From the NCBI GenBank assembly GCA_964351845.1, contig CAYGQJ010000013.1:7182-71181 (forward strand): a stretch of DNA of 64,000 bases, given 5' to 3'. The stretch is from an uncultured Flavobacteriaceae bacterium (lineage in GTDB: Bacteria; Bacteroidota; Bacteroidia; Flavobacteriales; Flavobacteriaceae). Of the stretch, positions 29,082-55,921 are shown one piece after another (the first letter of the stretch is position 1; each line of letters starts with the position of its first letter). A program made the position numbers and the translations under genes. The notes beneath the pieces were generated by a model. That model was not told the DNA's origin. It saw only the letters and a program-made list of their open reading frames with translations, and searched no databases.

Positions 29082-29117
29082 CGCTTTCGCGAACCTGCCT
29101 GACGGCAGGCAGGAGCG
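29082..29117. repeat. Palindrome A split by a 20-nt B insert
   Basis: CGCTTTCGCGAA|CCTGCCTGACGGCAGGCAGG|AGCG. Confidence 0.9.
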
Positions 29118-29140
29118 TACTATTACTACTTAAAATTAAA

Positions 29141-30301
29141 TTAATGATCTAGCCATGACTTGTGATAGTCCTCATCGGCTATTTCCATAGCGGCTTCACA
29201 CACTTTTAAAGGCTTAAAGGTATCGACCATCACCGCCAATTCTTCAGTTCCTTCTTTTCCGATACTCTTTTCTACCGTCCCAGGGTGTGGACCATGTGGG
29301 ATTCCAGCGGGATGCAGTGAAATATGACCAGCATCCACATCAGCTCTACTCATAAAATCTCCATCTACATAATACAACACCTCATCACTATCTATATTAC
29401 TATGATTATACGGTGCCGGAATACTTTGTGGATGGTAATCATACTTACGAGGCACAAAACTGCACACCACAAAAGCATCCGTCTCAAAAGTTTGATGCAC
29501 GGGTGGTGGCTGATGTATACGCCCTGTAATAGGCTCAAAATCATGAATACTAAACGCATACGGATAGTTATATCCATCATATCCTACCACATCAAAAGGA
29601 TGAGAGGCGTAGACCATCTCAAAAATATCATCTTGCTTTTTGACTTTGATTAAGAAATCTCCTTTCTCATCATTGGTTTCTAACTCATACGGCTGGCGTA
29701 AATCACGCTCACAAAACGGCGAATGTTCTAATAATTGCCCAAACCAATTACGATATCTTTTGGGTGTATATATAGGACGTCGTGATTCGACAATAAAAAG
29801 TCGGTTATCTTCGGTGTCAAAATCTATTTTGTAAATCACCCCTCGCGGAATCAAGAGATAATCGCCATATTTAAAATCCAAATTCCCTAAATGCGTACGC
29901 AGTTTTCCTGACCCTTTATGAATAAACAAGAGCTCGTCTGCATCGGTATTTTTATAAAAATAATTCTGTGTTTTTTGTTTAGGTGCTGCCAGAATGATTG
30001 TACAATCACTATTGGTCAACACAGGTTTACGACTCTCCAGATAATCCTGTTCTGGCTTAATCTGAAACCCTCTAAACCGATAGGATTTTATACTATTTTC
30101 TAAGGCAATTTTTGGTGCTACAGAATATTGCTTGCGGATCTCTTTAACCTGCGTAGGACGATGCACATGATAACTATTGGTACTCATCCCATCAAAACCA
30201 ATGGTTCCAAATAGTTGTTCTGAATACAGTTCTCCATCAGGTTTACGGAACTGTGTATGTCGTTTAGGAGGAATCTCTCCTAACTTGTGATAAAATGGCA
30301 T
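29141..30301 (-). CDS. hmgA: Homogentisate 1,2-dioxygenase
   Basis: MPFYHKLG.IPPKRH, NTDADELL, HQPPPVHQTF, PYNHSNIDSDEVLYY, HPAGIPHGP, ELAVMVDT. The ORF track extends to 30346, but MPFYH at 30301 is the likelier start. Confidence 0.93.
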   Translation of the reverse strand: MPFYHKLGEIPPKRHTQFRKPDGELYSEQLFGTIGFDGMSTNSYHVHRPTQVKEIRKQYSVAPKIALENSIKSYRFRGFQIKPEQDYLESRKPVLTNSDCTIILAAPKQKTQNYFYKNTDADELLFIHKGSGKLRTHLGNLDFKYGDYLLIPRGVIYKIDFDTEDNRLFIVESRRPIYTPKRYRNWFGQLLEHSPFCERDLRQPYELETNDEKGDFLIKVKKQDDIFEMVYASHPFDVVGYDGYNYPYAFSIHDFEPITGRIHQPPPVHQTFETDAFVVCSFVPRKYDYHPQSIPAPYNHSNIDSDEVLYYVDGDFMSRADVDAGHISLHPAGIPHGPHPGTVEKSIGKEGTEELAVMVDTFKPLKVCEAAMEIADEDYHKSWLDH

Positions 30302-30510
30302 GGTATTGTATAAGTTTAGATTGCTATTAAAGGTACTTAAAATCAAGCAATCAATGACTATTCTGGGTTTCTCTTTATGAGAAATTTCAGTAACAATGGG
30401 AGGTATGTCCAGCTTTTGTTTGACATTGCGATAAAGATACGGGTTTTTTATATGTGTTTGGTATGTGTTTTACACGCTTTCGCGAAAGCATATAAAGCAT
30501 CACCATTTTT

Positions 30511-31620
30511 CTAGAACTCAAACCGCAATTGCACATCGATTTCTTTTTCTTCAAGTGTTGTCTTAGCTTTCTTTTTATCTTCTGTATTCAAATTAGACAG
30601 TGAGATGCCTAACAACCGTACACTATCCTTCATTTTTTCTTGATATAAAAGCTCTTTGGCGGTTTCTAGAATCACATCTTTGGTGCGTACATAATAATCG
30701 AGTGTTCTGCTACGCGTTTGTAAGGTAAAATCAGAGTATTTAATCTTAAGGGTTACCGTTTTTCCAGCGACGTTGCTTTTAGAAAGGCGTTTCTCCACCT
30801 CCTCGGCAATATGATCTAGGCGCTCCATCATAAAAACTTCTGAGGTAATATTTTCAGAAAATGTACGCTCCGCAGCAAGGGATTTTCGAATGCGATTGGG
30901 TTTCACCTGACTGTATTGAATCCCTCTTACAATATCATAATAATACGCCCCACTTTTCCCAAAATGTTGCGCCAAATATTCTTTGGACTTCTTTTTCATA
31001 TCCAGTCCTGTAAAAATTCCCTTTTGGTACATTTTTTCAGCCGTTACCTTCCCAATTCCATAAAACTTACGGATGTCAAGGGTCTCTAAAAAAGCAACCA
31101 CCTCCTCTGGCGGAATGGTTTTCTGTCCATTGGGTTTATTGATATCGCTGGCCACCTTAGCCACAAACTTATTAATGCTAATGCCCGCCGAAGCATTCAA
31201 TCCTGTTTTTTCTTTGATTTTCTGACGTATCCAGGTAGCAATCACCGTAGCACTGGGCATGCCTACTTTATTTTCAGTGACATCCAGGTAGGCTTCATCA
31301 AGAGATAAAGGCTCTACAAGATCTGTAAACTCATGAAAGACTTCTCGTATTTGCTTTGAAACTTCGTTATAGCGTGCAAAATCAGAGCGAACAAAAATAA
31401 GTTCAGGACATAATTTACGCGCTAGCACCCCACTCATGGCACTTCGCACCCCAAATTTACGCGCTTCGTAACTCGCTGCGCTCACTACGCCACGCTCACC
31501 TCCACCCCCCACAGCAATCGCTTTTCCTCGTAAACTAGGATCATCCAACTGCGCTACAGATGCATAAAATGCATCCATATCTACATGAATAATCTTACGA
31601 ATAGGGAGGGACGTTTCCAT
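30511..31620 (-). CDS. dinB: DNA polymerase IV
   Basis: IIHVDMDAFYASV, AASYEARKFGVRSAM, SLDEAYLD, AKVASD..KPNG; probable start METSLP (ORF track start 31656). Confidence 0.96.
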   Translation of the reverse strand: METSLPIRKIIHVDMDAFYASVAQLDDPSLRGKAIAVGGGGERGVVSAASYEARKFGVRSAMSGVLARKLCPELIFVRSDFARYNEVSKQIREVFHEFTDLVEPLSLDEAYLDVTENKVGMPSATVIATWIRQKIKEKTGLNASAGISINKFVAKVASDINKPNGQKTIPPEEVVAFLETLDIRKFYGIGKVTAEKMYQKGIFTGLDMKKKSKEYLAQHFGKSGAYYYDIVRGIQYSQVKPNRIRKSLAAERTFSENITSEVFMMERLDHIAEEVEKRLSKSNVAGKTVTLKIKYSDFTLQTRSRTLDYYVRTKDVILETAKELLYQEKMKDSVRLLGISLSNLNTEDKKKAKTTLEEKEIDVQLRFEF

Positions 31621-31677
31621 AACATGCAAGGTACGGATTAGCCTAGAAGTTTTCAATAGATATTGTACATTTGAGAT

Positions 31678-32346
31678 ATGCCAAAAACAGCCATCATATT
31701 AGGAGCGACAGGACTTACAGGAGGCCTCTTAACCGAACTTCTCATCAATGATCCTGCCTATTCAAAAATCAAACTCCTTACCAGAAGACCTACCACATTT
31801 TCCAGCCCTAAAATAGAAGAAGTCATTTGTGATCTGCTTAACCTAGAAACGGTCAAAGAAGAGGTTACAGGAGATGTCGTTTTTTGCTGTATTGGTACCA
31901 CAAAAGCCAAAACACCTAATCGAGATCTATATCACAAGATTGATTACGGAATTCCGCTAAAAGCTGCAAAACTTGCAATAGAAAATAAGATAACCACGTT
32001 TATGGTGGTCTCCTCTATAGGCACTTCTGCTAAAAGCCCGTTTTTCTATGTCCGTACCAAAGGAGAAATGGAACGCGATGTGCTAAAAATAGGGATCCCA
32101 CATACCTATATTATGAAACCTGCCTTTATCAATGGCCGTCCCGATGAAGATCGAAAAGGAGAAAAAAGCCTTAAACTCCTCATGCGTATCATGGACTTTT
32201 TTATGGTAGGACCACTTAAAAAATACAAATCTACACAGGCACTACAAATCGCCAAAGCCATGGCATATCTCGGGACACACGATCACAAAGAACAGAATGT
32301 GCTCAATGATCAAATCAAAACACTAAGCAATGCCTATAGCATTTGA
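31678..32346 (+). CDS. NAD(P)H-binding short-chain oxidoreductase (TIP30/YraR-like)
   Basis: ILGATGLTG, FCCIGTT, IDYGIP, FYVRTKGEME; TACATTTG -7 box at 31666-31673. Confidence 0.85.
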   Translation: MPKTAIILGATGLTGGLLTELLINDPAYSKIKLLTRRPTTFSSPKIEEVICDLLNLETVKEEVTGDVVFCCIGTTKAKTPNRDLYHKIDYGIPLKAAKLAIENKITTFMVVSSIGTSAKSPFFYVRTKGEMERDVLKIGIPHTYIMKPAFINGRPDEDRKGEKSLKLLMRIMDFFMVGPLKKYKSTQALQIAKAMAYLGTHDHKEQNVLNDQIKTLSNAYSI

Positions 32347-32740
32347 TCACATCACGGCACCTTCAAAAAACCTAGAGGCTTCCATTGCATTCTATAAAAA
32401 GATAGGAATGACACTTATTGAGATAGAACCTAAGCATCATGCGCACTTTGAAAATAAGGAACATCATACCATTTTTACTGTATATTACAACACAAAACGC
32501 CCAGAAGATGACGTCATTATTTACTTTGAAGTCACTCATATTGAGTTATTGGAAGTCCGCTTTCGCGAACTTGCCTCGCCAGCAGGCAGGAGCGAATACT
32601 TCATAAAAACAAACTACGCTACTTCCTGGGGAGGTCACGAACTTCACCTGAAAGACCCAGACGGAAATTGTGTAATTTTATATCAAAAGAATCAAACGGG
32701 AAATACCCCGCCTTGGCAAACCGCAACATATGAATCTTAA
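32330..32740 (+). CDS. VOC/glyoxalase family protein with an in-frame 21-nt repeat insertion
   Basis: FDHIT...FYKKIG...WGGHELHLKDPDGN; a split palindrome A plus B insert encodes RFRE-LASPAGR-SE. Confidence 0.8.
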   Translation: MPIAFDHITAPSKNLEASIAFYKKIGMTLIEIEPKHHAHFENKEHHTIFTVYYNTKRPEDDVIIYFEVTHIELLEVRFRELASPAGRSEYFIKTNYATSWGGHELHLKDPDGNCVILYQKNQTGNTPPWQTATYES

Positions 32741-38361: not shown

Positions 38362-38391
38362 CTTGAATTTATGTTTATTTTTCTTGTTTTT

Positions 38392-38574
38392 ACCCCTTCC
38401 GTCAATAGCGCCGCTCTCGCTTCACTATTGCCACCTTCCCTGCCAGGGGAAGGAGCTCATGAGATAGTTATCTTTTAAACTTGGTGGAAATCTATTTGAT
38501 TTTCACCCCTTTTTAAGGCTCTCCTCCTTGAAAGGGAGGAGTGGCATTCGCCCAAGCGAATGACGAGGTGGGTC
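38392..38574. repeat. Family F hairpin pair (F1 forward 38392-38456, F2 reverse 38515-38574) downstream of DUF559
   Basis: ACCCCTTCCGTC-[hairpin]-GCCACCTTCCC..GGGGAAGGAGC and an inverted relative; repeated at 39017-39201. Confidence 0.88.
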
Positions 38575-38975: not shown

Positions 38976-39016
38976 AATTGTGTTTTTTGTATTTCCTATT
39001 ATATTCTACTATTTTC

Positions 39017-39201
39017 ACCCCTTCCGTCAATAGTACCGCTCTCGCTCTACTATTGCCACCTTCCCCTGCTAGGGGAAGGAGCACTTACTAACTTTATTTT
39101 TTTTACAAGAGAAGCTATTTGTTTCTATACTTACTTTTTAAAAGCTCCCCTCATTGAAAGGGAGGAGTGGCATTTGCCAAAGGCAAATGACGGGGTGGGT
39201 C
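39017..39201. repeat. Family F hairpin pair (F1 39017-39082, F2 39141-39201) upstream of DUF559
   Basis: Near-identical direct repeat of the two elements at 38392-38574, with stem-preserving changes. Confidence 0.88.
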
Positions 39202-39230: not shown

Positions 39231-42200
39231 CTACTTCTCAATCTCAACCCATGCCCCTTTATTACGTGCATAATATGTATTATCATACATCGCCTCTACC
39301 TGAGTACCTGGTAAATAATATTTCCCTAAATAGGAGGCATTTAAACGGACCGTAAAGGTTTTTGTGGAAGTTTTACTCAAATCAAAGTAAAAATTGACAC
39401 GATCATCGCGTATGTCTGTATATCTAGCAGCCCCTTCTGTTCCGCCTGCATCTTCTGTAAAACGGGTATTTACAATTTCCCATCCGCTTGGAAAGATTTG
39501 TGTAAGGGCTATATTGTCTACAAAATCACGACTGTCATTACTGACACTAATTTTAGCCACAAACTCTTCGCCTTGTCTCAACTTGGTAATGTCTATTTGT
39601 TGACCATCTGCACCCACAAACCGTGTCGTTACTGTAAGCTTACTAATCCCTGACAGCTCTTCCCCCAACGGTAATTTTCCGCTTTGGACGACACGAACAA
39701 ACACCACATTGTCTTTCGCATTTTGAAGGGTAATGGTATTAGCACCTTCTTTCGTTACTAAATCTCGCAGCGCAATCGCTTGTTGGGTATCAATCGTCAT
39801 TGATTTTCCATCTTTGGCATACTCCAACTTAATCGACTTCCCACCATTTTTGATCACCATTTTAGCCATGGCTAGTAACGCATAACTCGTTTCCTGCGTA
39901 CTTAACCAACGCTCTGACGACAAGGTTTTAGCCATAGAAATAGCAAGGTCTTTTTGCTTGGCGTCACCCATCGCGACCATCGTTTCTAATGCCATCGCGC
40001 GATTACGGAACACAGATCCATACGTATGATAATTACTTCTGTTAGGTTGAAAATCAATGTTTGCAGTGGCTGCTAATTCTTCAGCAGCTTTTGTTTGCCC
40101 TGCGAGTGCGTATGCTGCCGCCAATCGCCATTTGCTGTCATTGCTTAGGTTTCTGCTTTCGCGCAAGCGGTTCATCGCCGCAAGATCAGGTTGACCTGCA
40201 AGTGCTAAGGTGTATAAACGATACGCTTGTACAAGGGTCGTATTATACGCACGTTCCCCAGATCGCCACTCACGAGCCGTTTTTTTCTGAAAACGCAGCC
40301 AATTACTCATAAATGTAAGCGGTAAAGCATAGCCTTTTTTCTGTGCTTCGATCATAAAATGTCCCGCATAGTTGGTACCCCAAGTATCCGCAACCGTTTC
40401 ACCTTGCCAATAGCCTAATCCGCCATCTGCATTTTGAAAATTCCCTAATCGTTCGATCCCTCGCTTGATGTTTTCTTGTGCTTTTTGTTTTTGCTCAAAC
40501 GTCAAATCAAACACATCATCCATAAATAATTGTGGAAACGCACCCGATGTGGTTTGCTCTACACACCCATGCGGATACCGAATTAAGTACTGCATCCGTT
40601 TGGTGAAATCCATAGGAGGTAGCGTAGAAAACTCAATCGCCGACTCGTTAGATCCTGCGACCCCGAAGGTTGAATAATCAATGGTTAGACTCCCTGATGC
40701 AGGCAACTCATAATCGGTCACTTTTTGGGTGATCGGATTCGGGTTTTCAACATCTATTTCTACTTGATAGGTCGCACGTTCTCCATTTCCTTCAGCAATG
40801 ATTTCGATGGTTTGGATCTCATTCACGGCCGTCACATCAAATTCAAAAGGAACAATTTGCTCGCCTACAGAAGAGAAATTAATCGTCTTGGTCGTGCCAT
40901 CTGTAGCCTTAAATGCTGCCGAAGTTTTGACAGTAATTTTAGCTTGTTTAATGGTAGACTCCATCGCAAAAACGGTCACAGGCAAGGTTACGTGTTCGCC
41001 CGGAGATAGCTTTCGCGGAAGCGAACCTAACACCATCAATGGCTTACGAACAGGAACTGTTTTTTCGGCAGCACCATAGGCAGATGCGGTAGGATCGCCT
41101 GCCACCACCATCGCACGTACCGAACCGACATAATTAGGCATCTGTATCGTGTGGGTTTTGGTTTCATTTTCGCTTAAAGCGAAAGGACCTAAATATGTCA
41201 CCACCGGCTTAAAACGTTCTGCTTTTCTGTTTTTTGCAGCCGCAGCAGCATCGCCCCCACCGATTGCATAAATGTTTCCTACACTTCCTGAATAAGCGCC
41301 GATCACATCATCAAACATGTCAAAGGTCATTACGCCTAACGCTTCTCTGCTGTAAAAATGATTGTGAATGGCGGGGGTTTTATAACGTGTCAAGTCCAGC
41401 AAACCGTCATCTACCACCGCAATGGTATAGGTCATGGCTTTGGCGTTGGCCTCACTTACTTTGATGGTATAGGATTCCTCAGGCTTGAGGACATCAGGCA
41501 TCGTGATTTTAGGCGTAAGTATGGTATTTTGATCTTCAACCAGCAACGGAATCACACCATATAATCGAATAGGCAAATCATTTTTAGTTTGCTCGTGAGC
41601 TTGCAATAAGGAGATATTGACATAGACATTGGGTGCCATATCTGAAGTCACCGGAATCTTGAATTGTGTTTCGCCATTTTGAGCATCTACCCACCAACTG
41701 TCCAATACTTGAGTTCCATTTTCTAGGCTGATCAGCGCACGCGAACTATCACCGGACGGAAACGTAATGGTCGCCGCTTCCCCGACTTGATATTTTTCTT
41801 TATCTGACGAGAATACTAGCATTTTAGCACTTTCCGAATCACTTTGCAAACCACTCCAATTGCGATAAAAATACGCAATACGCCCCGTGGCATGTCCGCT
41901 TTCTGGATCAATTACTCGAATCAAATACCGCCCACTTTCTCTTTCTGGAATATTGACCGTAAAACTGGTTTTACCGTTATTCCCTGTGGTGACTTTAAAA
42001 TCTTTTACAGGCGTATGCACGGTGCCAACTTCGTAGTTGGAATAGTTATCGCGACCGCGACTCCACCACCAGCGCCAATTCATTTTAAATACTTGTACAT
42101 CCAACGTTCTGTTGCCTGCAGCTTTTCCTTTGGTGTTAGTGGTCACAACATCAAACTCGGTGTTATCATCGGTAAAATAGCTGCCGTAGGCACGTCCTTT

Positions 42201-44828
42201 GGGCGATTGTACCCCTACAAAATGATCAAAAGGGGCGATGTCTTTAGTAACGACATCTAATGAGAAGTCACCGCCGCCTTCATATGCTTTGGTTACAAAA
42301 GTTCCTTTCAGCATACCCGGAGCACGCTCGCTGAGTGCTAACTTTTGACTGATATTTGTACTCCCTTCTTCATTTAATTGACCGTCAAGTACCGTAAGTT
42401 CTACGTCATTAAAACTGCGAATAGGATCAAAGAAATGATAGGTAGGGTAGGTTTTGAAACCACTGTTAGAACTCCGAATCGTCACATCCGATTTAATCTT
42501 GAGATTACGTGCAGGGGCTCCGTGCAACCACGTAACTTTTGCAGTCCCCTCTAACGCACCGCTCGCATCTATGATATCATCTTCAAAGTCTAAGTTGACT
42601 TTTAACCGATTGGGTTTGATGGTTTCTACTTTTAAGGTTTTAGAAAAACTAGCACCGCCTACACTTACCGTCGCATTCCAATTTCCCGTAGGATCTGTGG
42701 GTGCGGTAGTAATCGGGAAATAATACACGTTATTGAGTGCTTTTCCTGTGTTTGATACAGTATTTGCCGTGAGCACCTTGCGATAGGTTAATTTTCCTCT
42801 GGCATCACTGACTTCTAATTTTACAGGATGGTCTTTGGGCAATGGATTGTTAGCATCATTCAACACAAACGAAAGGTGAATACTATCACCCGGACGATGT
42901 ACGCCTCGCTCGGTATACAAATATCCTTTGAGCCCTTTTTGTAATTGTTTTCCAGAAATATCAAATTTGCTCATAGAAAGGGCATTCCCGTCTTCTATTT
43001 TTAAATAGGCATAGTTGGCGCCTTTTTGAGCAACAGCAAATACGGCGTATCCTTTGGGCGTAATCGTCGCAAGCCCTGTGGCATCTGTCGTTACACTGCC
43101 AATGGGTTGTTTTTGATAATTATATAGAGTGATTTTAGTATTGGCTTCAGGCGTCGTGGTTACGATATCTGTCGCAGCAAAATGATAGCCATTATCTTTT
43201 CCTTTTTTGACAATCAACGCAAGATCCGAGCCTAAAATATTGCTCTGGATAAACCGATCTTCTTGGTAATAGGCGGGATGACACGGGTTATCTTCTTGTC
43301 GCCAATTATACACTTGATTTCGCCAACGATAGATTCTATTATCCCAATATTGCTCTTCGCGCTCGTCTTCATTGGTACTTTCTACCTCGGTAAAGTCCTC
43401 GTCATAATAATCTTCTTCATAATAGTCATCATAGGTGTCTTCTTCTACCTGTGTGCCATCGTCTACACATTCATAAGCGACATAGCTTTGCTTGTAACTG
43501 ATCTCTACCCGATACAATGCTCCTGGATCTGCCTGAAAGATCTTAGAAAGATCAATGCCGTGCACACGCCACTGACTATCGCCTACATCACTTGACTGAA
43601 AACTAGCATCTTCTAGCGTGATGGTTTTCTTTGTGACACGTCTTCCAACTTGCTTTAATCCATAGCTATTATTACTATTTAGGTTATTTTCCTGTAAATA
43701 TTCTAGTACATTATTTTCGTATATTTTTATGATCCGCACATCGACATGGCTCAAATTAACGGCTTCAAAATAGAACGGATTGCTTCCTGATTTAGGCAAA
43801 ACCACACCATTTGTAATCGCTCGAAGTGCGGGTTTTAACTGCTCAAAAGAAACGGTTTCTGCAAAAGGGGTTTTTAGTTTAAATCCATCGGTACTTTTAA
43901 TGCCTTGAAAAACCTCCACAAGGGATTTCCCTACAATCTTATTTTCTGGGTACACATTGAGGACATTGCCATCGACTTCAAAACGTAAATTTCCAGCTCG
44001 CTGAATCGTCACTAAGCCCTTAAAATTTTGTTTGTCTTGTAACGGATCTGAAAAATTGATCGTCAACGACGCATTGGCACCCAGTCTTTGATTGATTTTT
44101 ACAATTTTAAAATTATTACGCCCAGGAATTAGCACCTCATTATCCCCTTTTGTTTCATCGGCATCTATGGCATCGCCATCCCAACTGACTTGAATTTTCG
44201 TATCTTCTGTTTCTCTACGAATGCTATCTATTTTAAACACATGATAGCGAGCGGTGGTTTGATCACTCAACCACGTAATGGAGAGCGGTTTTCCGTTTTG
44301 AGTCGCTTGTATGAGTTGTTTTGCTTTCGCGAAAGCGATCACATCGGCACCCTCAACTTGCCCTTCTAGATATTGATATTCCCGATCATACGATTGTAAG
44401 GCACGGAGATCTACTTTGAAATCTGGGGTAATGGTTTTGAAACCAAACGCAAACGTGCGCATCTCTTTAGGAAGGTCGTCATAGAGTTTATCCAGACGCA
44501 CCTCCACCGAATATTCGGTGTCCGCTTCAAGAAGTCCATCAGGCACAAATTTTAAGGTGCGCTGTCCAGAAACCGTCAATGTTCCCGACGTTTTAGGTGT
44601 AATTTTCAAAATCTCTGAAGGGATTTCTTGATCGACTTCAAACTGCGTCAACGCCTTTGCTACCTGCACGGTAATTGGGTTTGCAATAGACTGCCTACCA
44701 CTTGTGGAATACGAGATATACTCCTTGTATTTAAACAAGTTATCAGTAGGTTGTTCAGTGCCTTTTTTATCACAAGTGATAAATAAAAGCGGTAGGACGA
44801 CGGCGAGAAGAAGATGAATTTTACGCAT
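39231..44828 (-). CDS. Bacterial alpha-2-macroglobulin (MG2/YfhM family) lipoprotein
   Basis: Lipobox LFITC, YLYTERGVHRPGD, VVDDGLLDLT, thioester motif PHGCVEQ, RDDRV, VEAMY. Confidence 0.95.
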   Translation of the reverse strand: MRKIHLLLAVVLPLLFITCDKKGTEQPTDNLFKYKEYISYSTSGRQSIANPITVQVAKALTQFEVDQEIPSEILKITPKTSGTLTVSGQRTLKFVPDGLLEADTEYSVEVRLDKLYDDLPKEMRTFAFGFKTITPDFKVDLRALQSYDREYQYLEGQVEGADVIAFAKAKQLIQATQNGKPLSITWLSDQTTARYHVFKIDSIRRETEDTKIQVSWDGDAIDADETKGDNEVLIPGRNNFKIVKINQRLGANASLTINFSDPLQDKQNFKGLVTIQRAGNLRFEVDGNVLNVYPENKIVGKSLVEVFQGIKSTDGFKLKTPFAETVSFEQLKPALRAITNGVVLPKSGSNPFYFEAVNLSHVDVRIIKIYENNVLEYLQENNLNSNNSYGLKQVGRRVTKKTITLEDASFQSSDVGDSQWRVHGIDLSKIFQADPGALYRVEISYKQSYVAYECVDDGTQVEEDTYDDYYEEDYYDEDFTEVESTNEDEREEQYWDNRIYRWRNQVYNWRQEDNPCHPAYYQEDRFIQSNILGSDLALIVKKGKDNGYHFAATDIVTTTPEANTKITLYNYQKQPIGSVTTDATGLATITPKGYAVFAVAQKGANYAYLKIEDGNALSMSKFDISGKQLQKGLKGYLYTERGVHRPGDSIHLSFVLNDANNPLPKDHPVKLEVSDARGKLTYRKVLTANTVSNTGKALNNVYYFPITTAPTDPTGNWNATVSVGGASFSKTLKVETIKPNRLKVNLDFEDDIIDASGALEGTAKVTWLHGAPARNLKIKSDVTIRSSNSGFKTYPTYHFFDPIRSFNDVELTVLDGQLNEEGSTNISQKLALSERAPGMLKGTFVTKAYEGGGDFSLDVVTKDIAPFDHFVGVQSPKGRAYGSYFTDDNTEFDVVTTNTKGKAAGNRTLDVQVFKMNWRWWWSRGRDNYSNYEVGTVHTPVKDFKVTTGNNGKTSFTVNIPERESGRYLIRVIDPESGHATGRIAYFYRNWSGLQSDSESAKMLVFSSDKEKYQVGEAATITFPSGDSSRALISLENGTQVLDSWWVDAQNGETQFKIPVTSDMAPNVYVNISLLQAHEQTKNDLPIRLYGVIPLLVEDQNTILTPKITMPDVLKPEESYTIKVSEANAKAMTYTIAVVDDGLLDLTRYKTPAIHNHFYSREALGVMTFDMFDDVIGAYSGSVGNIYAIGGGDAAAAAKNRKAERFKPVVTYLGPFALSENETKTHTIQMPNYVGSVRAMVVAGDPTASAYGAAEKTVPVRKPLMVLGSLPRKLSPGEHVTLPVTVFAMESTIKQAKITVKTSAAFKATDGTTKTINFSSVGEQIVPFEFDVTAVNEIQTIEIIAEGNGERATYQVEIDVENPNPITQKVTDYELPASGSLTIDYSTFGVAGSNESAIEFSTLPPMDFTKRMQYLIRYPHGCVEQTTSGAFPQLFMDDVFDLTFEQKQKAQENIKRGIERLGNFQNADGGLGYWQGETVADTWGTNYAGHFMIEAQKKGYALPLTFMSNWLRFQKKTAREWRSGERAYNTTLVQAYRLYTLALAGQPDLAAMNRLRESRNLSNDSKWRLAAAYALAGQTKAAEELAATANIDFQPNRSNYHTYGSVFRNRAMALETMVAMGDAKQKDLAISMAKTLSSERWLSTQETSYALLAMAKMVIKNGGKSIKLEYAKDGKSMTIDTQQAIALRDLVTKEGANTITLQNAKDNVVFVRVVQSGKLPLGEELSGISKLTVTTRFVGADGQQIDITKLRQGEEFVAKISVSNDSRDFVDNIALTQIFPSGWEIVNTRFTEDAGGTEGAARYTDIRDDRVNFYFDLSKTSTKTFTVRLNASYLGKYYLPGTQVEAMYDNTYYARNKGAWVEIEK

Positions 44829-46873: not shown

Positions 46874-48223
46874 ATGAACCGTACGATCCTCTCTTTTTTA
46901 GTCAGTTTTTTGATTTCTACATCTATTTTCCTGTCATCCGAACAGGCAGGCGCGCAAGCGGACTTTTTACAGTCAGGGCCTATGGTGGGATATTCTGATT
47001 TTCGAGAAGTACTGATTTGGGTACAAACCAAAGCTCCTGCCGATGTGAAAATTGGATATTTCGCTCAAGGCGAAAAGGAACGATTCACACCCACCGTTAC
47101 CGCTACAGCAGCCGAAGATCATATTGTAAAATTATTTCCAAGTGACGTGGCATATGGAACGCAATACACCTATAAATTATACATCAATAATCAACATGTA
47201 AAACGCCCGTATCCTTTAGAATTCCAAACGCAAACCTTATGGCAATATCGCACAGATCCGCCATCATTTACCTTTGCGATTGGATCTTGTTTTTATCGGA
47301 ATGACCCTACAGATGACCGCCCTGGAAAACCGTATGGAGATGTCTACGGAATCTTTGAGAGTATCGTTCAAAAAAGTCCTGATTTTATGGTCTGGCTGGG
47401 GGACAATATTTACCTACGCACCCCCGATTTCCAATCTGAACGTGGCATCCGATATCGGAACCGAGAAGCGCGTGCCACACCAGAATTACAATCTTTATTA
47501 GGAAGTGTACATCACTACGCGATTTGGGATGACCACGATTTTGGCCCCAATGATTCTGATCGGAGTTATGTACATAAAAAAATGACTGAAAAAGCCTTTA
47601 ACGACTATTGGGGGAATCCGAGTACCAATGCCACTGGAGAAGGCGGGATTACGGGACAATTTGTGTGGAATGATGTCGAGTTCTTCTTGATGGATGATCG
47701 CTATCACCGCGCACCTAACCGAAGTCTTGACACTACTAAAGACTACCTTGGAGAAGCGCAACTCAACTGGCTTATAGATGCGCTAACGGCTAGTAAAGCA
47801 TCTTTCAAAATCGTATGTATTGGTGGGCAAACCATCAGTGATGCGGCGGTGTACGAAAACTACGCCACGTATCCAGAAGCCCGCAAGCGTTTATTAGATC
47901 GTATTGCCGCCGAAAAGATAGAAGGCGTTGTCTTTATGAGTGGAGACAGGCATCATACGGAGATCTCTCGTTTAGAACGCCCAAATGCCTATCCGCTGAT
48001 TGATATTACGTGTTCGCCGCTTACTTCGGGCACCCATAAAGCCCGTGATGAAGGAAATACGTTACAAGTAAAAGACAAAACGTATTATGAGCGCAACTTT
48101 GGCATAGTCAACGTTTCTGGAACGTATGGAAAACGTACGCTTCTACTTACCATTTATGACGAAAAAGGGGCAAAAGTATGGGATTATACGATCTCACAAG
48201 AGGAATTGAAGTATCAAAAATAA
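46874..48223 (+). CDS. phoD: PhoD family alkaline phosphatase
   Basis: FAIGSCF, WLGDNIY, IWDDHDF, FFLMDDRYHR, LGEAQLNWL, MSGDRHH. Confidence 0.88.
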   Translation: MNRTILSFLVSFLISTSIFLSSEQAGAQADFLQSGPMVGYSDFREVLIWVQTKAPADVKIGYFAQGEKERFTPTVTATAAEDHIVKLFPSDVAYGTQYTYKLYINNQHVKRPYPLEFQTQTLWQYRTDPPSFTFAIGSCFYRNDPTDDRPGKPYGDVYGIFESIVQKSPDFMVWLGDNIYLRTPDFQSERGIRYRNREARATPELQSLLGSVHHYAIWDDHDFGPNDSDRSYVHKKMTEKAFNDYWGNPSTNATGEGGITGQFVWNDVEFFLMDDRYHRAPNRSLDTTKDYLGEAQLNWLIDALTASKASFKIVCIGGQTISDAAVYENYATYPEARKRLLDRIAAEKIEGVVFMSGDRHHTEISRLERPNAYPLIDITCSPLTSGTHKARDEGNTLQVKDKTYYERNFGIVNVSGTYGKRTLLLTIYDEKGAKVWDYTISQEELKYQK

Positions 48224-48224
48224 A

Positions 48225-48453
48225 GCCGGGGCTTCAGTACAATTTTTAGGATTGCTTTTAGCAATTATAAAAATCACTCAGCCACCTTTGATCCGTTTTT
48301 AATATGTGCTTTCGCGAAAATCACTTAGCCGCCTTATATTTTGTTTTAAAGTCGGCATTTCGATACATTTTGCTTCAATAGAAAAAGAATCAAAGGACAT
48401 TGAGTGATTTCAGAGTTCTGAAAAAGAACTCTGAAATAGTACCGAAATGCCGG
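48225..48453. repeat. X/Y mosaic (BIME/REPIN-like) unit 1
   Basis: X GGGGCTTCAGTAC..ATCACTCAGCCACC (48225-48287), partial A+X (48308-48333), Y GGACATTGAGTGA..GTACCGAAATGCCGG (48395-48453). Confidence 0.88.
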
Positions 48454-49952: not shown

Positions 49953-50045
49953 GTGTGATTGTTTAGTAGTATAGACGCGTCATTTTCACAAAAGGTTGTC
50001 TCGCATCTTTTTTTATGACGATTTTATAGATGGAATGTTACTTAA

Positions 50046-50239
50046 GCCGGGGCTTCGGTACAATTTTTAGGATTGCTTTCAGCAATGATAAAAATCACTC
50101 AGCCGCCTTTGATTTGTTTTTGTTATATGCTTTCGCGAAAGCAAAAAATTACTCAGACGCCTAACATTACAACAAACACAGGACATTGAGTGATTTTAAA
50201 ATCCTGATAAAGGGTTTTGAAATAGTATCGAAATGTCGG
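50046..50239. repeat. X/Y mosaic unit 2 with an embedded palindrome A
   Basis: X 50046-50108, A 50129-50142, Y 50181-50239. Confidence 0.88.
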
Positions 50240-50253
50240 ATCAATAAGAAATA

Positions 50254-50412
50254 TCACTCTTCCTTTTGCTGTGCTTTGATTTTTTCTTTGAGGATTTTTA
50301 TACGGGCTTCATGAGCGTCTTTTTTCTCGCGCTCTTTCTTTTTCTTTTGTGCCATCAGCTTAGAATGCTTGGCTTTATTTTTTGTGTTTTTAGGACTTCC
50401 TGCTTTTGCCAT
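50254..50412 (-). CDS. Small basic protein (52 aa), not in the ORF track
   Basis: MAKAGSPKNTKNKAKHSKLMAQKKKKEREKKDAHEARIKILKEKIKAQQKEE*; TATCTTTG -7 box at 50417-50424. Confidence 0.7.
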   Translation of the reverse strand: MAKAGSPKNTKNKAKHSKLMAQKKKKEREKKDAHEARIKILKEKIKAQQKEE

Positions 50413-50437
50413 AAAGCAAAGATAGTGAAGATTAATT

Positions 50438-50562
50438 GGGGGCTTCGGTACAATTTCCGCTTACGCGAAAATCACTCAGCCGCCTAGCATTGTATCAAGG
50501 AGAGGACATTGAGTAATTTCAAAATCCTGAAAAAGGATTTTGAAATAGTATCGAAATGCCGG
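50438..50562. repeat. X/Y mosaic unit 3
   Basis: X with an A-like core (50438-50485), Y 50504-50562. Confidence 0.88.
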
Positions 50563-50610
50563 CATCATGGGTCCGCTTTAACGCTTTGCTCTCCCTTTTG
50601 GTCGTGAATC

Positions 50611-51213
50611 TCACAAGCTCGCTTTCGCGAAAGCGGTTTGCATCTCCTTAAATGCTTGCACAGGATCAGCTGCATTCCAAACGCCACCTAAGGCACCCAC
50701 GCCTTGAAAGCCTAGTTTGATCGCTTCTGGGGTAGTTTGTGCGTTGATACCGCCCATGCCTGCAATGAATTTTGGGATGTGACGTACATCAAAACCTCTG
50801 CCTTGCATCTCACTTTTGGAAATCGCTGCAAACACCGGACTTAGCAAATGATAGGCAAAATCAACGGACTGTGCGGCGAGGTCTTCAGGTTCGTGGTAGG
50901 AGCTACTGACCGAAAATTCATTGTCGGTGAAAGATTGAACATAGCTCGCCAACTGATCGCCTTGGGCTCTCCATTTACGTTCTTCCAGATGAATTCCTTT
51001 GATGGGAAACTCGGCCGTGAGTTCGTGATGGAAATTATGCGTCATAATATATTGATAATACTGCGGATCTACTTGATCCAAATAGGCACAGTGCGCTTCT
51101 AGCGTTGCCGCTGGTTTTCTAAAATGAAAATACTGCAAGCCCGCTTCAAAGAGTTGATGCAAGGTTTGAATTTCTGTAGCGCTGGTTTGTTCTGGTGATA
51201 TGAGTAGGATCAT
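50611..51213 (-). CDS. Thiamine phosphate synthase (ThiE/TenI) family protein
   Basis: LFEAGLQYFHFRKP, GIHL, SSSYH, LLSPVFAAISK, AGMGGI, GALGGVW; likelier start MILLISP at 51213. Confidence 0.82.
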   Translation of the reverse strand: MILLISPEQTSATEIQTLHQLFEAGLQYFHFRKPAATLEAHCAYLDQVDPQYYQYIMTHNFHHELTAEFPIKGIHLEERKWRAQGDQLASYVQSFTDNEFSVSSSYHEPEDLAAQSVDFAYHLLSPVFAAISKSEMQGRGFDVRHIPKFIAGMGGINAQTTPEAIKLGFQGVGALGGVWNAADPVQAFKEMQTAFAKASL

Positions 51214-51220
51214 AGTTTTT

Positions 51221-51494
51221 CTTTTCATTCCCTTGAATTTACCTACCGACAGGCAGGGATGGGAATCTCATCATAACGTAAAAGTACGGTTTAATCTACG
51301 TATGAGGAATTTGATTGGTTTTATACCGCTTATGATTCTTTTTAATTCCCGTGAAGACGGGAATCTAATTCTTTTTTTGATTACGTTTCAGAGCTTGAGA
51401 TTCCCGTAGTTATTTACTGATAAGCAGCTAGTAAAATAACATGAGATTCCCGCCGGAGTTTATGCTGAGCATAGTCGAAGTGCGGGAATGAAAG
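51221..51494. repeat. Cluster of family D (ATTCCC-N8-GGGAAT) hairpins, two with nested inserts
   Basis: 51227-51266 (with a 20-nt B insert), 51345-51364 (intact), half copy near 51397, 51446-51489 (with a C insert). Confidence 0.85.
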
Positions 51495-51796: not shown

Positions 51797-51852
51797 TTTT
51801 ATTATTTACTATAAAGTTACGAAAAAAAGAAGCTATTGACTGAATCAAACGC

Positions 51853-51972
51853 GGGGCTTCGGTACAATTTTTAGGATTGCTTTCAGCAATTATAAAAATC
51901 ACTCAGCCGCCTTGCATTGTAACACAAAAGGACATTGAGTGACTCGCTGCAAGCGAGGTGTATCGAAATGAC
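51853..51972. repeat. X/Y mosaic unit 4
   Basis: X 51853-51912; Y with a short CTCGC-TGCAA-GCGAG core 51930-51972. Confidence 0.85.
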
Positions 51973-52669: not shown

Positions 52670-53098
52670 TTACAGCAATTCTTCTTTACACATCAAACCT
52701 GGCATTTGTATTTTTTCTCCTTTAATAGTCGCAGAAGCGATGATATGCGCACAACTGTCTTTTATTTTCAGAATTTCTACATAGACAACCGTTTCTTTCA
52801 CAGACTCAATATCTACAAATTCTGGATCATTATAGCTAGACACATAATGCAACTCATAACTGCAATCACTCGTCCAGATAATGCTAACAATGACCTCAGA
52901 GACATTTCCATTAATGTCTACAATTTCTCGTTGCTCATCGCCTTGGCGTATAATCAAGGTTTCAAAAGATACATATTCATTCATAGGAACGACAAAGGAG
53001 CCTTCTTTAAAATCGGCGCAGGTCAATGCCTCTTGTGCCTGTAGGGCACTGACGACAAATAGCGTCATACAAAAACTAAAAAGGGTCTTCATTATCAT
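52670..53098 (-). CDS. Secreted hypothetical protein
   Basis: Signal peptide, C.DFKEGSF, I.WTSDCSYEL. Confidence 0.7.
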   Translation of the reverse strand: MIMKTLFSFCMTLFVVSALQAQEALTCADFKEGSFVVPMNEYVSFETLIIRQGDEQREIVDINGNVSEVIVSIIWTSDCSYELHYVSSYNDPEFVDIESVKETVVYVEILKIKDSCAHIIASATIKGEKIQMPGLMCKEELL

Positions 53099-53192
53099 TT
53101 TTTTTGTGAAGATACGAGAATTTGAAACTCTTGTGTCACAACATCGTCAAGTGCAATGACATCTCGTTTTTGTGTATGAGTGACAAAGACAT

Positions 53193-53474
53193 CCGGCATT
53201 TCGGTACAATTTATAAAGTGCTTTCAGCACTTTATAAATCACTCAATGTCCTAGCAGTGTTACAATGTAACAAACACACCCCTTAATCCCCTACTTCGAC
53301 AAGCTCAGCACAGCGTCTTTCTAGAGGGGAAACTCATACTTTAAATGTTTTAAAACTAAATGTAAGGTGGCTGAGTGATTTCGAAGCATGAGAAATAGTA
53401 TCGAAGCCACCGAGTCAAGAACTCAATGTAAGGTGGCTGCCTGTTTTGCTGAAAGCAAAAGGTACCGAAGCCCC
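53193..53474. repeat. Mosaic unit 5: inverted Y, an F hairpin with a C insert, two inverted X copies
   Basis: Y 53193-53251; CCCCT|24 nt|CTTTCTAGAGGGG 53288-53329; X 53365-53410 and 53430-53474. Confidence 0.85.
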
Positions 53475-53625
53475 AGTTTGGATGTTAAAAATCAGGCCTA
53501 TTGTTGCAAAAAGAATCATTTTACTATCAATTTTACGGTATCCCCACATATTATACATAATAATGGGCAGTCACGGTATCTAGTTAGAGATAAAATAGTT
53601 ATATTTCCGTTCCCAAATTAGCCTG

Positions 53626-55857
53626 ATGCTTAAGACCGTCAAAACCCTACTCTTTTTTTTATGTATGTGCTACAGTTCTTTGGCAGCACAAGACTTACAG
53701 CAATATGAAAATTCGAGAGAGATTCCCTATACGTATACAAATGCTCAAATAGATTCTATTACCAATATTTTACGAGCTTATTTTTACGAAGCTAGCTATG
53801 ATAAAGTGATTGAGGAATCACCAACGCTTATTGACAACGCTCGGGATATTAATTATAAGATGGGGGAAAGAAGCTTGATCTCTATCCTTGGAAATGCCTT
53901 TGCTAAACTAGATGATATCGACAAAGCGAGTACGCTTTTTAATAAGGCACTTACGAAAGCTCAAAAGGAAAAAGATCTCCTTTCTTTAGCAACACACTAT
54001 AACAATCTCGGAAATACCTACATCAAAGAAGACCCTCAAAAAGCCATTTCTTATTTTGAAAATGCTTATGAGGCTGGAAAACAGCTAAAAAGCGACCGTA
54101 TTGCATTTATTGCACTCAACAACCTTTCAGAACTATATGTAGGGACTAAAGATCCACAAAACGCACAATATTATGTAGATAAAGCCCTGCCATTGTTATT
54201 GAATAGTGAGACCATCGATGAGGCTTTTAAAGAGGAATACATCGCAACTGTGTATCATGTGCAGGGAGCTATCTTTTTATTAAAAGGAAAAAACGACCAG
54301 GCCATTGCGTATATCTTAAAATCTATGGAGATAGGAAAAGGTGGTAAGTACCAAGAAGAAACACTCCTCGATAATTTTACGAATTTAATAGACGCCTACG
54401 ATAACACGGGGCAATATGAAAAATTAAATGTCGTTAGAAAGCGATATGACTCCTTACGAAATAAACGCTACGAAGCCGATAAAATTTTACAACAACAAAT
54501 TGCTCGCTTTAAGTTCAGCTTAGATCAATATGAACAAGAACTAAAAGCGTCCGAACTCGAAAGGTTACTGGCGCAACAAAAAGCATCAAAAAGTAAATTA
54601 CTTTCGACTTTCTCCTTAACCTTGGGAGGAATTTTATTATTAATTCTTGCGCTCTTACTCTACGTGAGGCGTAAGCGTTTTAAACTACTTAAAGATTTAA
54701 AAGCAAAAAACGCACAATACTTAGAAGCTAAAGAAAAATCAGAACGACTAACACAAGCAAAAACACAACTGTTTTCAACCATTAGTCACGAGCTACGTAC
54801 GCCGTTATACGGCATTATCGGACTCTCTTCTATATTACTGAAAGATCCTAAATTCCAAAATAACTTAGAAGATCTTACCTCTCTCAAATTTTCTGCTGAT
54901 TATTTATTAGCCCTCGTCAATGATGTCTTAAACTTAAATAAACTAGATTCTCAAACAGGGCAACATATTCAAAATAGCAATTTTAAATTAGAGTCCCTTA
55001 TTCATAACATCACCCAATCATTTGAGTTTATTAATCAGCAAAATAATAATGTCGTTTATATTGATATCGACCCTACCATTCCTAAAATTCTGCTTGGGGA
55101 TCAAACAAAAGTCTCTCAGGTGTTAATGAACTTAGTGAGTAATGCCAGCAAGTTTACACAAGAGGGACGCATTGATATTATTGTAAAAACACACTATGCC
55201 GACGATAAAAAAGTCTCTTTGTCTTTCTCTATCATGGATAACGGCATTGGGATTCCTGAAGAACAAAAAGAAAAAATCTTTGAAGAGTTTACCCAAGGTG
55301 CCAATTATAGTGAGTATGAAGGCACGGGACTCGGACTTCCTATTGTCAATAAAATCTTAGCCATTTTAGGCAGCAAACTCATGTTTGAAAGCACCTATGG
55401 TAAAGGAACGACCTTCTCTTGTATCTTGACTTTTTCTAGGGGCGCTGCTGATATGCTAGAAAACACTGAAAGAGAAGATGTATGTGTCAAAAAATTACAA
55501 GACAAAAAAATCTTGATTGTTGACGATAATAAAATCAATCAATTGGTTACTCAAAAAGTACTGGAACAACACGGGATGCTACACGGTGTTGCCAATAATG
55601 GATTGGATGCTTTAGAAAAAGTAAAAGAGCACGCTTTTGATGCCATTTTGATGGATGTAAATATGCCCGTCATGAATGGTCTTGACTCTAGTAGAGCTAT
55701 GCGAGATTTTGGCTTAAACACCCCTATCATTGCCTTAACCGCTGTAAATGCTGTAAATCCAGAGAAAGATTTTGGCACCTATGGGATTGATGATGCCATT
55801 GTAAAACCATATCGAACAGAACAATTATTAGAACTGCTGGTAAAGTACATTTACTAA
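53626..55857 (+). CDS. Hybrid sensor histidine kinase/response regulator with periplasmic TPR domain
   Basis: Signal peptide, TPRs, TM helix, ISHELRTPL, QVLMNLVSNASKFT, DNGIGI, GTGLGL, receiver ILIVDD...ILMD..MP...DGL. Confidence 0.93.
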   Translation: MLKTVKTLLFFLCMCYSSLAAQDLQQYENSREIPYTYTNAQIDSITNILRAYFYEASYDKVIEESPTLIDNARDINYKMGERSLISILGNAFAKLDDIDKASTLFNKALTKAQKEKDLLSLATHYNNLGNTYIKEDPQKAISYFENAYEAGKQLKSDRIAFIALNNLSELYVGTKDPQNAQYYVDKALPLLLNSETIDEAFKEEYIATVYHVQGAIFLLKGKNDQAIAYILKSMEIGKGGKYQEETLLDNFTNLIDAYDNTGQYEKLNVVRKRYDSLRNKRYEADKILQQQIARFKFSLDQYEQELKASELERLLAQQKASKSKLLSTFSLTLGGILLLILALLLYVRRKRFKLLKDLKAKNAQYLEAKEKSERLTQAKTQLFSTISHELRTPLYGIIGLSSILLKDPKFQNNLEDLTSLKFSADYLLALVNDVLNLNKLDSQTGQHIQNSNFKLESLIHNITQSFEFINQQNNNVVYIDIDPTIPKILLGDQTKVSQVLMNLVSNASKFTQEGRIDIIVKTHYADDKKVSLSFSIMDNGIGIPEEQKEKIFEEFTQGANYSEYEGTGLGLPIVNKILAILGSKLMFESTYGKGTTFSCILTFSRGAADMLENTEREDVCVKKLQDKKILIVDDNKINQLVTQKVLEQHGMLHGVANNGLDALEKVKEHAFDAILMDVNMPVMNGLDSSRAMRDFGLNTPIIALTAVNAVNPEKDFGTYGIDDAIVKPYRTEQLLELLVKYIY

Positions 55858-55886
55858 AAGGAAGGGATTAAAATTATTTCTTTTTA

Positions 55887-55921
55887 CGCTCCTTACTTAT
55901 CGGCTGCGGGTTCGCGAAAGC
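55887..55921. repeat. Palindrome A split by a degenerate 20-nt insert at the B site
   Basis: CGCT|CCTTACTTATCGGCTGCGGG|TTCGCGAAAGC. Confidence 0.75.

Follow-up and report, generated by a model that had tools for sequence, protein, structure and literature searches.

A 20-nucleotide hairpin inserted into short palindromes of Dokdonia and found in other phyla and phages: a candidate minimal mobile element

The window analysed here, 64,000 nucleotides (nt) of contig CAYGQJ010000013.1 from an uncultured Flavobacteriaceae bacterium, contains several copies of a short GC-rich palindrome, element B, lodged inside other short palindromes, among them one that we call element A. The locus raises the question whether B is a part of its hosts or a unit that moves on its own, and, in the latter case, how. 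The original prediction, made from this sequence, held that B is non-autonomous, can be separated from its hosts and lodges in palindromes of other kinds. In the genus Dokdonia this description holds, as orthologous alleles with and without B are found and no gene family recurs beside it. Comparison with other genomes shows that B is not a Dokdonia repeat but a cross-phylum family, present in about ten bacterial phyla and in phages. B is probably a very small non-autonomous mobile element that consists of one GC-rich hairpin and is moved in trans.

Element B and its copies in the window

The 20-nt form of B is the perfect palindrome CCTGCCTGCCGGCAGGCAGG. It is GC-rich, and the entire element is one hairpin with a stem of 8 bp. 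The 21-nt form is the perfect 20-mer with one extra base after position 7. As single-stranded DNA, B folds at −8 to −8.8 kcal/mol, compared with −4.3 kcal/mol for A, itself a perfect palindrome of sequence CGCTTTCGCGAAAGCG. In the window, three matches to the strict pattern CCTGCC-N(4-12)-GGCAGG are found, against 0.00 expected from shuffles. In all, the 64 kb contain six copies of B, and a scan of the window for further split A palindromes yielded none beyond these six. Five of the copies had been predicted, and all five are present at the predicted positions. The copies and their hosts are listed below, the caret marking an interrupted bond.

29094-29113, plus strand: B, 20 nt, CCTGCCTGACGGCAGGCAGG, between the stop of the open reading frame (ORF) 29141-30346(-) and the start of ORF 28523-29032(-)
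29082-29117: split host A, CGCTTTCGCGAA (29082-29093), then B, then AGCG (29114-29117)
32570-32590, plus strand: B, 21 nt, CTTGCCTCGCCAGCAGGCAGG, in frame in the 136-amino-acid VOC/glyoxalase-like ORF 32330-32740(+)
32558-32594: split host A within coding sequence, flanks CGCTTTCGCGAA and AGCG
18396-18416, minus strand: B, 21 nt, reading CCTGCCTCGCCGGCAGGCAGG on the minus strand, between convergent ORFs
18392-18452: decayed A with two inserts at symmetric bonds, B and a second element, E, CGCT^B^TTTGAGAA^E^AGCG
46930-46950: sixth copy of B, 21 nt, in frame in the signal peptide of ORF 46874-48223(+)
51238-51257, plus strand: decayed B, 20 nt, TTTACCTACCGACAGGCAGG, in the loop of a hairpin of another type, D, just upstream of ORF 50611-51228(-)
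51227-51266: host D hairpin, ATTCCC-TTGAA^GAT-GGGAAT
55891-55910, minus strand: strongly decayed B within A, between convergent ORFs
55887-55921: split host A, CGCT, then B, then TTCGCGAAAGC

The same bond of A, CGCGAA^AGCG (on the other strand CGCT^TTCGCG), is split at 29094, 32570, 18396 and 55891. Reading of the sequence bears out that the copies at 29094 and 32570 share both flanks and that those at 18396 and 55891 occupy the same site on the opposite strand, where the flanks are CGCT^ on one side and ^TTCGCG or TTTGAG on the other. The degenerate copy at 55891 is a genuine B, since the orthologous bond in Dokdonia ponticola (locus L322) holds the intact 21-mer CCTGCCTGCCGGCGAGGCAGG. The copy at 46930 reads F-LSSEQAG-AQA, and its host is an A-like palindrome split at a second bond, TTTT^CGCG.

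Insertion was thought to occur in hairpin arms. This is correct for A, where the insertion point is two base pairs inside the 3' stem arm, and incorrect for D, where B sits in the loop; the shared factor is GAA^ near the dyad. Given this position, the composite forms a pair of neighbouring hairpins and A no longer has its stem. Hence B breaks the A hairpin instead of nesting in it. In contigs of related metagenomes, which are too fragmented for alleles to be called, the A-B composite shows a depth spike and loose ends, which fits many copies. Among the indexed public RNA runs, none contains the window.

An origin of B by chance is ruled out by the shuffles and by the non-random loop bases described below.

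Filled and empty alleles in Dokdonia

The window is a piece of bacterial chromosome, about 38% G+C and dense in coding sequence; a search of the 64 kb against Rfam at the gathering score and for tRNAs gave no match. The protein of the homogentisate-dioxygenase-like ORF 29141-30346(-) is 98% identical to that of D. ponticola, and the next 18 best loci are from Dokdonia or close Flavobacteriaceae. Across four genes (4.5 kb), 10% of nucleotides differ between the window and D. ponticola. The tree is ((MAG87, AsnC12), (((D. pacifica, '746'), '807'), (CALEMI, (D. ponticola, window)))). Among the loci named below, L001 and L322 are from D. ponticola, L005 and L321 from CALEMI, L008 and L323 from '746', and L327 from '807'.

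At five Dokdonia sites, filled and empty orthologous alleles are found, and the difference between them is exactly 20 or 21 nt. Neither a target duplication nor a footprint is seen in seven filled/empty pairs, these five and two from phages described below, and no ragged allele occurs at the sites compared in Dokdonia.

The 29094 site is filled in the window and in D. ponticola (L001), as ACGCT, 20 nt and TTCGCGAAAGCG. It is empty (ACGCTTTCGCGAAAGCG, with intact CGCTTTCGCGAAAGCG) in seven genomes (L002-L005, L009, L011, L016), while '746' (L008) has a filled allele that is badly decayed. The register of this insertion is unique, with zero duplicated bases.

The 32570 site lies in a coding sequence. 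The window reads RFRE-LASPAGR-SEYF, CALEMI (L005) has the empty allele RFRE-SVYF, and D. ponticola (L001) is filled, with the segment PASPTGR.

The 46930 site is filled in the window, CALEMI (L321) and '807' (L327), and empty (TTTCGCGCAAGC) in L322, L323, L324 and L325.

For the D hairpin at 51238, excision of B had been predicted to restore the hairpin. Such alleles do exist: ATTCCCTTCTTCAAGGGAAT in CALEMI (L321) and ATTCCCATCTTCATGGGAAT in '746' (L323). In L322, L325 and L327 this hairpin, about 60 nt upstream of position 10001, is filled by E, here about 30 nt long. The window contains one more hairpin of this type:

51345-51364: second, empty D hairpin, ATTCCCGTGAAGACGGGAAT

At the fifth site it is the window that has the empty allele:

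50621-50634: intact A at the C-terminus of ORF 50611-51228, the protein ending in TAFAKASL

A 21-nt B is present here in D. ponticola (L322) and '807' (L327), where a stop codon truncates the protein, which ends in TAFLSAE.

Since both filled and empty orthologous alleles exist in Dokdonia relatives, A and B are not one inseparable unit, the alternative that the original prediction had itself named; treatment of the two as a single unit is thereby ruled out.

The presence and absence of B at 29094, 46930 and 50621 conflict with the species tree, and a single gain is insufficient for each of the three sites. The filled alleles at 46930 and at 50621 share derived substitutions (CCTGTC..., ...TAGGCAGG) and hence look orthologous. 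If so, two or three exact losses are needed at each of these sites. Thus, either B was lost precisely or it was gained more than once, and from the disagreement with the tree, together with the absence of footprints, we infer exact excision of B. The copies decay by point mutation, and orthologous copies show graded decay.

Insertion rules in Dokdonia

All Dokdonia copy numbers are lower bounds, as they come from the fetched loci (about 1.6 Mb). The junction 18-mer GCTTTCGCGAACCTGCCT is present in at least 108 loci, about 95 of them in Dokdonia and at least 17 in D. ponticola; about 17 are expected by chance in the whole collection, and the approximately ten scattered matches outside Dokdonia fit chance.

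Nearly all B copies in the Dokdonia DNA have as host either A, the loop of a D-type hairpin or a palindrome of the form GTGA(A/GA)^TTCAC. Among the copies hosted by A, the most frequent form is CCTGCCTCGCCGGCAGGCAGG (n = 26), followed by the perfect 20-mer (n = 15) and by forms with the extra base A (n = 7) or T (n = 6) in place of C. The half of the 21-mer with the extra base faces GAA in a ratio of about 52:1, and this orientation is not an artefact of the bait, because both orientations begin with CCTGCCT. Ten bystander copies form an unselected sample. A is the host of five of them, at bonds 4/12 or 6/10, and a D-like loop, CGCGAA^GGCG, that of one. Palindromes of the form GTGAA^TTCAC or GAGA^TTCAC hold two or three more, and one or two have an unclear host, so that about eight of the ten are in palindromes of these three kinds. 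All four Dokdonia copies found within coding sequence are 21-mers.

The target bonds are CGCGAA^AGCG and, less often, CGCTTT^CGCG in A, TTGAA^G in the D loop, and GTGA(A/GA)^TTCAC. What these targets share is a GAA^ bond (^TTC) only a few bases from the dyad. When the flanks are joined, they fold around the junction at −3 kcal/mol or below in eight of 14 independent Dokdonia sites, compared with 13.6% of 3000 controls.

The main host, A, is an over-represented palindrome specific to Dokdonia. Its 14-nt core GCTTTCGCGAAAGC occurs in the window 11 times exactly and 15 times with at most one mismatch, against 0.00 expected from shuffles. A was found in the Dokdonia loci L001-L019, whereas 61 loci from other genera of Flavobacteriaceae lack it. 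It occurs both in spacers and in genes, where the usual reading is AFAKA, for instance in a signal-peptide cleavage region (17366) and at a C-terminus (50621). The cores in the window, (C)GCTTTCGCGAAAGC(G), start at:

15463, 17366, 22814, 25914, 30476, 33366, 37707, 40155
41009, 44323, 50129, 50621, 57436, 58531, 61084

A resembles the cyanobacterial highly iterated palindrome HIP1 in being an over-represented short perfect palindrome that occurs in genes and spacers of one lineage. It differs in sequence (CGCTTTCGCGAAAGCG, which contains TCGCGA) and in phylum, and the comparison concerns A, not B. A literature search by sequence and keyword, of incomplete coverage, found no description of A.

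Element B beyond Dokdonia

One genome per species was scanned with the pattern CCTGCCT-N(4-5)-GCAGGCAGG, which fixes 16 of the 20 bases. The matches comprise at least 120 loci with mutually unrelated flanks. The free loop bases are far from random: among the 124 genome matches listed, GCCG, which makes a perfect palindrome, occurs 61 times and ACCG 25 times, with about 0.5 of each expected by chance; other loop variants in this list are GTCCG, TGCCG and CGCCG. By taxonomy, the listed matches include about 40 Bacteroidota, 29 Patescibacteria, 11 Planctomycetota or other members of the Planctomycetes-Verrucomicrobia-Chlamydiae group, nine delta-type Proteobacteria or Bdellovibrionota, seven Omnitrophota, seven uncultured Gammaproteobacteria, three or four Nitrospirota, three Chloroflexi and three Ignavibacteria, whereas Bacillota, Actinomycetota, Cyanobacteria, Enterobacterales and Archaea have none among them. 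The records with B come from many studies, among them isolate genomes, assemblies from long reads and one single-cell genome. B is carried by viral contigs as well, some with five to eight copies among the matches listed.

In a family of uncultivated high-GC phages, two loci have exact empty alleles in a sister genome, with a difference of 20 nt and no duplication. The bonds are ...CCCGTCGG^TTCACACG... and ...GCGCGAAA^CCGAAAGG..., which resemble those used in Dokdonia. A third search with viral joined flanks gave no empty allele. BLAST of two B copies against cultured phages yielded no match, although the low-complexity filter or the E-value limit may hide matches of 20 nt.

The length of B matters in genes. 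Outside Dokdonia, 28% of the 20-mers and 64% of the 21-mers are in open frames of at least 450 nt, compared with 84% of controls. This avoidance of open frames by the 20-mers is as predicted by selection against frameshifts.

Private variants recur at several sites of one genome, for example CCCGCCTGCCGGACGGGCAGG twice in L111 and CCTGTCTGCCGGACAGGCAGG twice in L237. Thus, new copies are made from resident ones. B is also found within B, one base off centre (L109, L121, L168, L175), and directly adjoining B.

Outside Dokdonia, the association with palindromes is weaker. Perfect flank stems of at least 6 bp surround 10.7% of copies, compared with 2.4% of controls, and stable enclosing folds are seen around 22% of copies in genomes, compared with 10% of controls (p = 3e-4). 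In viral contigs, the stable enclosing folds show no excess over controls. Joined flanks thus form hairpins more often than controls in Dokdonia and, modestly, in other genomes, and not in viral contigs. Similarly, the claim that B is always inside a hairpin is true of nearly all Dokdonia copies and does not extend to most copies elsewhere. Hence the palindromic host is a local habit of the Dokdonia copies, not a defining property of B.

Outside Dokdonia, B is often situated within tandem arrays of 7–9-nt units that continue on both sides. The loci are:

L145, L166, L176, L180, L186, L197, L204, L227, L261, L262, L271, L273

The phage genome of L318 has many dispersed and adjacent copies of B and, in addition, 11 perfect tandem 21-nt B-like units (CAGGCCATGCCTACCGGCAGG) at 3911-4142, up to the end of the 30.8-kb viral contig. 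This array may be an assembly artefact. The observation also concerns L245 and L315.

Copies in tRNA genes

In a phage tRNA-Met (L274, about 2230-2330), B is in the variable loop, where it forms a long variable arm. ARAGORN calls this tRNA-Met both with B (92 nt) and without it (72 nt). In a related contig, L206, at 8616, the T-arm is partly deleted.

In three cases B is located in the D-arm of a tRNA 5' half. One is in a member of the Patescibacteria (L112, 4017-4225), where the two tRNA halves (acceptor stem GTCAGGG...CCCTGAC) are separated by an intact tRNA-Met and B is in the 5' half. In the other two, a WWE3 bacterium (L160) and a viral contig (L304), the 5' half is a duplicate of that of tRNA-Lys(TTT) and precedes a small ORF of the GIY-YIG nuclease type; in L160, an intact tRNA-Lys follows this ORF. 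A small GIY-YIG ORF lies directly downstream of B in three loci:

L160, 2100-2480
L304, 480-816
L119, 3550-3884

The arrangement with tRNA-Lys may be a tRNA-targeting homing cassette. As a general agent of B the GIY-YIG ORF is ruled out, since none is present in the 1.6 Mb or so of Dokdonia DNA.

Possible mechanism and its alternatives

The observations establish exact insertion without duplication, a short target, a fixed orientation, copying from resident elements, decay, a length filter in genes, and non-autonomy. The last point follows from the absence of a recurrent gene family beside B: when ORFs up to 400 nt and up to 3 kb away from B were clustered, none emerged, as the large ORF clusters were overlapping spurious frames of related high-GC phages.

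We suppose that an enzyme acting in trans would cut and rejoin single-stranded DNA at the foot of the hairpin. In an extruded hairpin the two flanks are side by side, so that one cut-and-join step would remove or insert B without a scar; B would thus also leave precisely. The closest known model of such an agent would be an HUH/Y1 transposase of the insertion-sequence family IS200/IS605 or of the type known as repetitive extragenic palindrome (REP)-associated tyrosine transposase (RAYT), which is a guess. B would be parasitic, and what it does to the host would be side effects: the A hairpin is broken and a stronger one added, seven residues are added to a protein, or a C-terminus is truncated.

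The main competitor dispenses with a dedicated enzyme. Here B would spread by template switching or ectopic gene conversion between copies of A, with the A arms as microhomology and the first copy acquired horizontally. This would agree with the single A-B junction and orientation shared by most Dokdonia copies and with the fact that no transposase was found in the fetched DNA, and conversion against an empty A would explain both scar-free loss and the conflict with the tree. However, the homology on one side is only the 4 nt AGCG, a second bond within A is used as well, and several hosts (the D loop, GTGAA^TTCAC, GAGA^TTCAC) have no likeness to A save GAA^ or ^TTC. Moreover, genomes and phages without any A contain B too, at sites of no common sequence and with exact filled and empty alleles. 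We consider this explanation unlikely. The perfect inverted repeat of B could also be that of a miniature transposable element of the inverted-repeat kind (MITE), with two abutted 10-bp terminal inverted repeats and a DDE transposase encoded elsewhere. An apparent target duplication exists: with one mismatch allowed, a 7-nt flanking repeat accompanies 12 of 238 non-Dokdonia copies, against 0.5 expected, with a sharp peak at 7 nt. On the other hand, none of the seven filled/empty pairs has a duplication, so that a duplication of fixed length, which is expected of MITEs along with the inverted repeat, is lacking. In several cases the 7-nt repeat is part of a longer array of heptamers or octamers that extends on both sides of B, and it is the continuation of the array units that produces the apparent flanking repeat. 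No full-length element with B half-sites at its ends is present in the fetched loci; the search for a parent element with half-sites CCTGCCTGCC...GGCAGGCAGG 0.2–6 kb apart recovered only B-rich phage contigs and the terminal tandem array. An origin as a MITE is highly improbable.

Two more explanations deny mobility. B might be a functional hairpin under selection, such as a terminator, a stabiliser or a protein-binding site, the alleles reflecting recruitment or loss of function. The copies at 18396, 29094 and 55891 are indeed just downstream of genes, B is much stronger than A, and its sequence is conserved across phyla. But copies also occur in coding sequences, a signal peptide and tRNA genes, one makes a premature stop codon, and many are decaying. 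The T-run of an intrinsic terminator is missing after B in four of five intergenic or flanking contexts, where B is followed by AGCG, TTCGCG or GATG, and TTT is seen at 18396 only. That an identical 20-mer should have arisen base by base at exact bonds is not credible, and a functional hairpin is, in our opinion, quite improbable. The perfect palindrome, the many matches in metagenome-assembled genomes and the viral contig ending in 11 perfect tandem units might suggest a sequencing or assembly artefact, that is, an adapter or linker. This is effectively refuted by the substitutions and graded decay that distinguish orthologous copies; further, B is present in isolate, single-cell and long-read assemblies of many studies, and the genic copies keep the reading frame. 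The probability left to an artefact is negligible.

Several points weigh against a mobile hairpin moved in trans. Its identity across phyla rests on a pattern with 16 of 20 bases fixed beforehand. The flanks outside Dokdonia differ from GAA^...^AGCG and follow a looser rule: T hardly ever precedes B, and there is an enrichment of about 3.5-fold for CGA^ and AGA^. If the choice of target is encoded in the element, this is awkward, because the element itself is identical. About 5% of the non-Dokdonia copies have an exact 7-nt flanking direct repeat. A crude search for the HUH...Y motif in 4 Mb of fetched DNA (about 1.6 Mb of it from Dokdonia) found nothing convincing. The pattern of presence and absence ascribed to loss would equally result from hot spots that receive B repeatedly or from recombination between lineages. 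Finally, B has neither the layout of two hairpins and guide sequences typical of IS200/IS605 nor the tag of REP sequences.

Comparison with known systems

Known IS200/IS605 elements, about 100 bp or longer, require guide sequences and a pair of unlike subterminal hairpins, and they are cleaved several bases outside these hairpins. B, in comparison, consists of one symmetric hairpin of 20 nt, which would be cut precisely at the foot. With these elements (IS608, ISDra2) and their palindrome-associated derivatives B shares the absence of target duplication, insertion 3' of a short sequence, one orientation and the recognition of a hairpin. Their excision is scar-free; for B, loss is suggested by the conflict with the tree at three sites and by the lack of footprints.

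B resembles REP sequences, including REPINs, and their RAYT system in that the latter are GC-rich hairpins of 20–40 nt in many dispersed copies, are not autonomous and are believed to be processed in single-stranded form. REPs are species-specific and extragenic and co-evolve with the RAYT gene that they flank. B, on the contrary, does not change between about ten phyla and phages, is found within coding sequences as well as tRNA genes, and has no RAYT nearby among the loci searched. According to PMC3733652, REPs are tagged with GTAG or CGTC. This tag is absent from B, which starts with CCTG and ends with CAGG, and its flanks are variable. Subclasses of HUH/Y1 enzymes exist in Bacteroidetes and Planctomycetes, some of them with 'atypical secondary structures', as noted in PMC6006769.

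The absence of duplication, insertion 3' of a motif, one orientation, dependence on a hairpin and scar-free loss together make up the signature of IS200/IS605 'peel and paste' and of REP/RAYT. B would thus work like these systems, but it is not filed as a member of either, because defining features of both fail.

Other families of palindromes show a likeness too. Rickettsia palindromic elements are palindromic, are found in frame in protein and RNA genes, measure about 100–150 bp and are restricted to Rickettsia and relatives. B also inserts in frame, adding a peptide segment, and enters RNA genes, but it is only 20–21 nt long and crosses phyla. The GC clusters of yeast mitochondria and the PstI palindromes of Neurospora are short GC-rich palindromes in AT-rich DNA, polymorphic among strains and sometimes inside genes or each other; the yeast clusters usually have short target duplications. 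They are similar to B as scattered short GC-rich palindromes, and different as organellar elements of unrelated sequence. A literature search by the sequence of B, its parts and keywords, again of incomplete coverage, revealed no published description. A bare 20-nt unit common to many phyla and phages would, on this comparison, be a feature of none of the nearest known kinds.

A bolder version of the mobile-element explanation, which we regard as possible rather than probable, is that B is the smallest transposable unit yet: a bare 20-nt hairpin moved by a widespread structure-specific cut-and-join activity, possibly phage-borne, that crosses phyla and inserts and excises without scars in spacers, protein genes and tRNA genes, in a class distinct from REP/RAYT, IS200/IS605 and MITEs. 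If true, a hairpin of 20 nt suffices as a mobile element and has crossed about ten bacterial phyla and phage genomes, and the accepted size limit for transposable DNA would be lowered. The abundant filled and empty alleles and a target of few bases would make this a natural system for hairpin-targeted scar-free insertion and excision, and a trans-acting enzyme able to take out or put in one particular hairpin with precision could have practical uses. Also explained would be the odd 7-residue insertions (PASPAGR, LPAGRQ-like) and 20-nt insertions encountered by annotators in genes, tRNAs and spacers of Bacteroidota, Patescibacteria and other groups.

Element E and other repeats

Element E is a second mini-insert, about 24–30 nt long (..RGTTTATGCTGAGC..GTCGAAGT), which uses the same hosts as B. 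Its copies in the window are:

12825-12851: E
18422-18448: E, at the other symmetric bond of the A that carries B at 18396
51450-51481: E, in a D hairpin
53293-53317: E

In several species, the A downstream of ORF 29141-30346 is followed by an E-like sequence, perhaps with a 7-nt repeat GAAAGCG. Element E of Dokdonia may work like B; short genomic palindromes such as A can be landing pads for at least two mini-elements.

A further dispersed Dokdonia repeat, ..GCGAAATCGARCTTGCGAGA^TTCACGACCAGAGGGAGAG.., is empty in the window, at about 50560-50610. In several relatives this repeat carries B at GAGA^TTCAC; the positions noted in relatives are:

L006, 10159
L002, 10168
L323, 10647
L349, 6302

The ORFs at 48–53 kb are flanked by a cluster of repeats of about 95–100 nt (AAGCCGGGGCTTCGGTACAATTTTTAGGATTGCTTT.. 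and ..GGACATTGAGTGATTT..GAAATAGTATCGAAATGCCGG), which are unrelated to B:

48221-48453
50042-50562
51846-51944
53188-53264

Finally, a direct duplication of about 170 nt (38387-38556 and 39012-39182, 626 nt apart) is situated upstream of the 1865-amino-acid ORF 39231-44828(-) and includes the small GC-rich hairpins CCCTGCCAGGGG and CTCCTCCTTGAAAGGGAGGAG.

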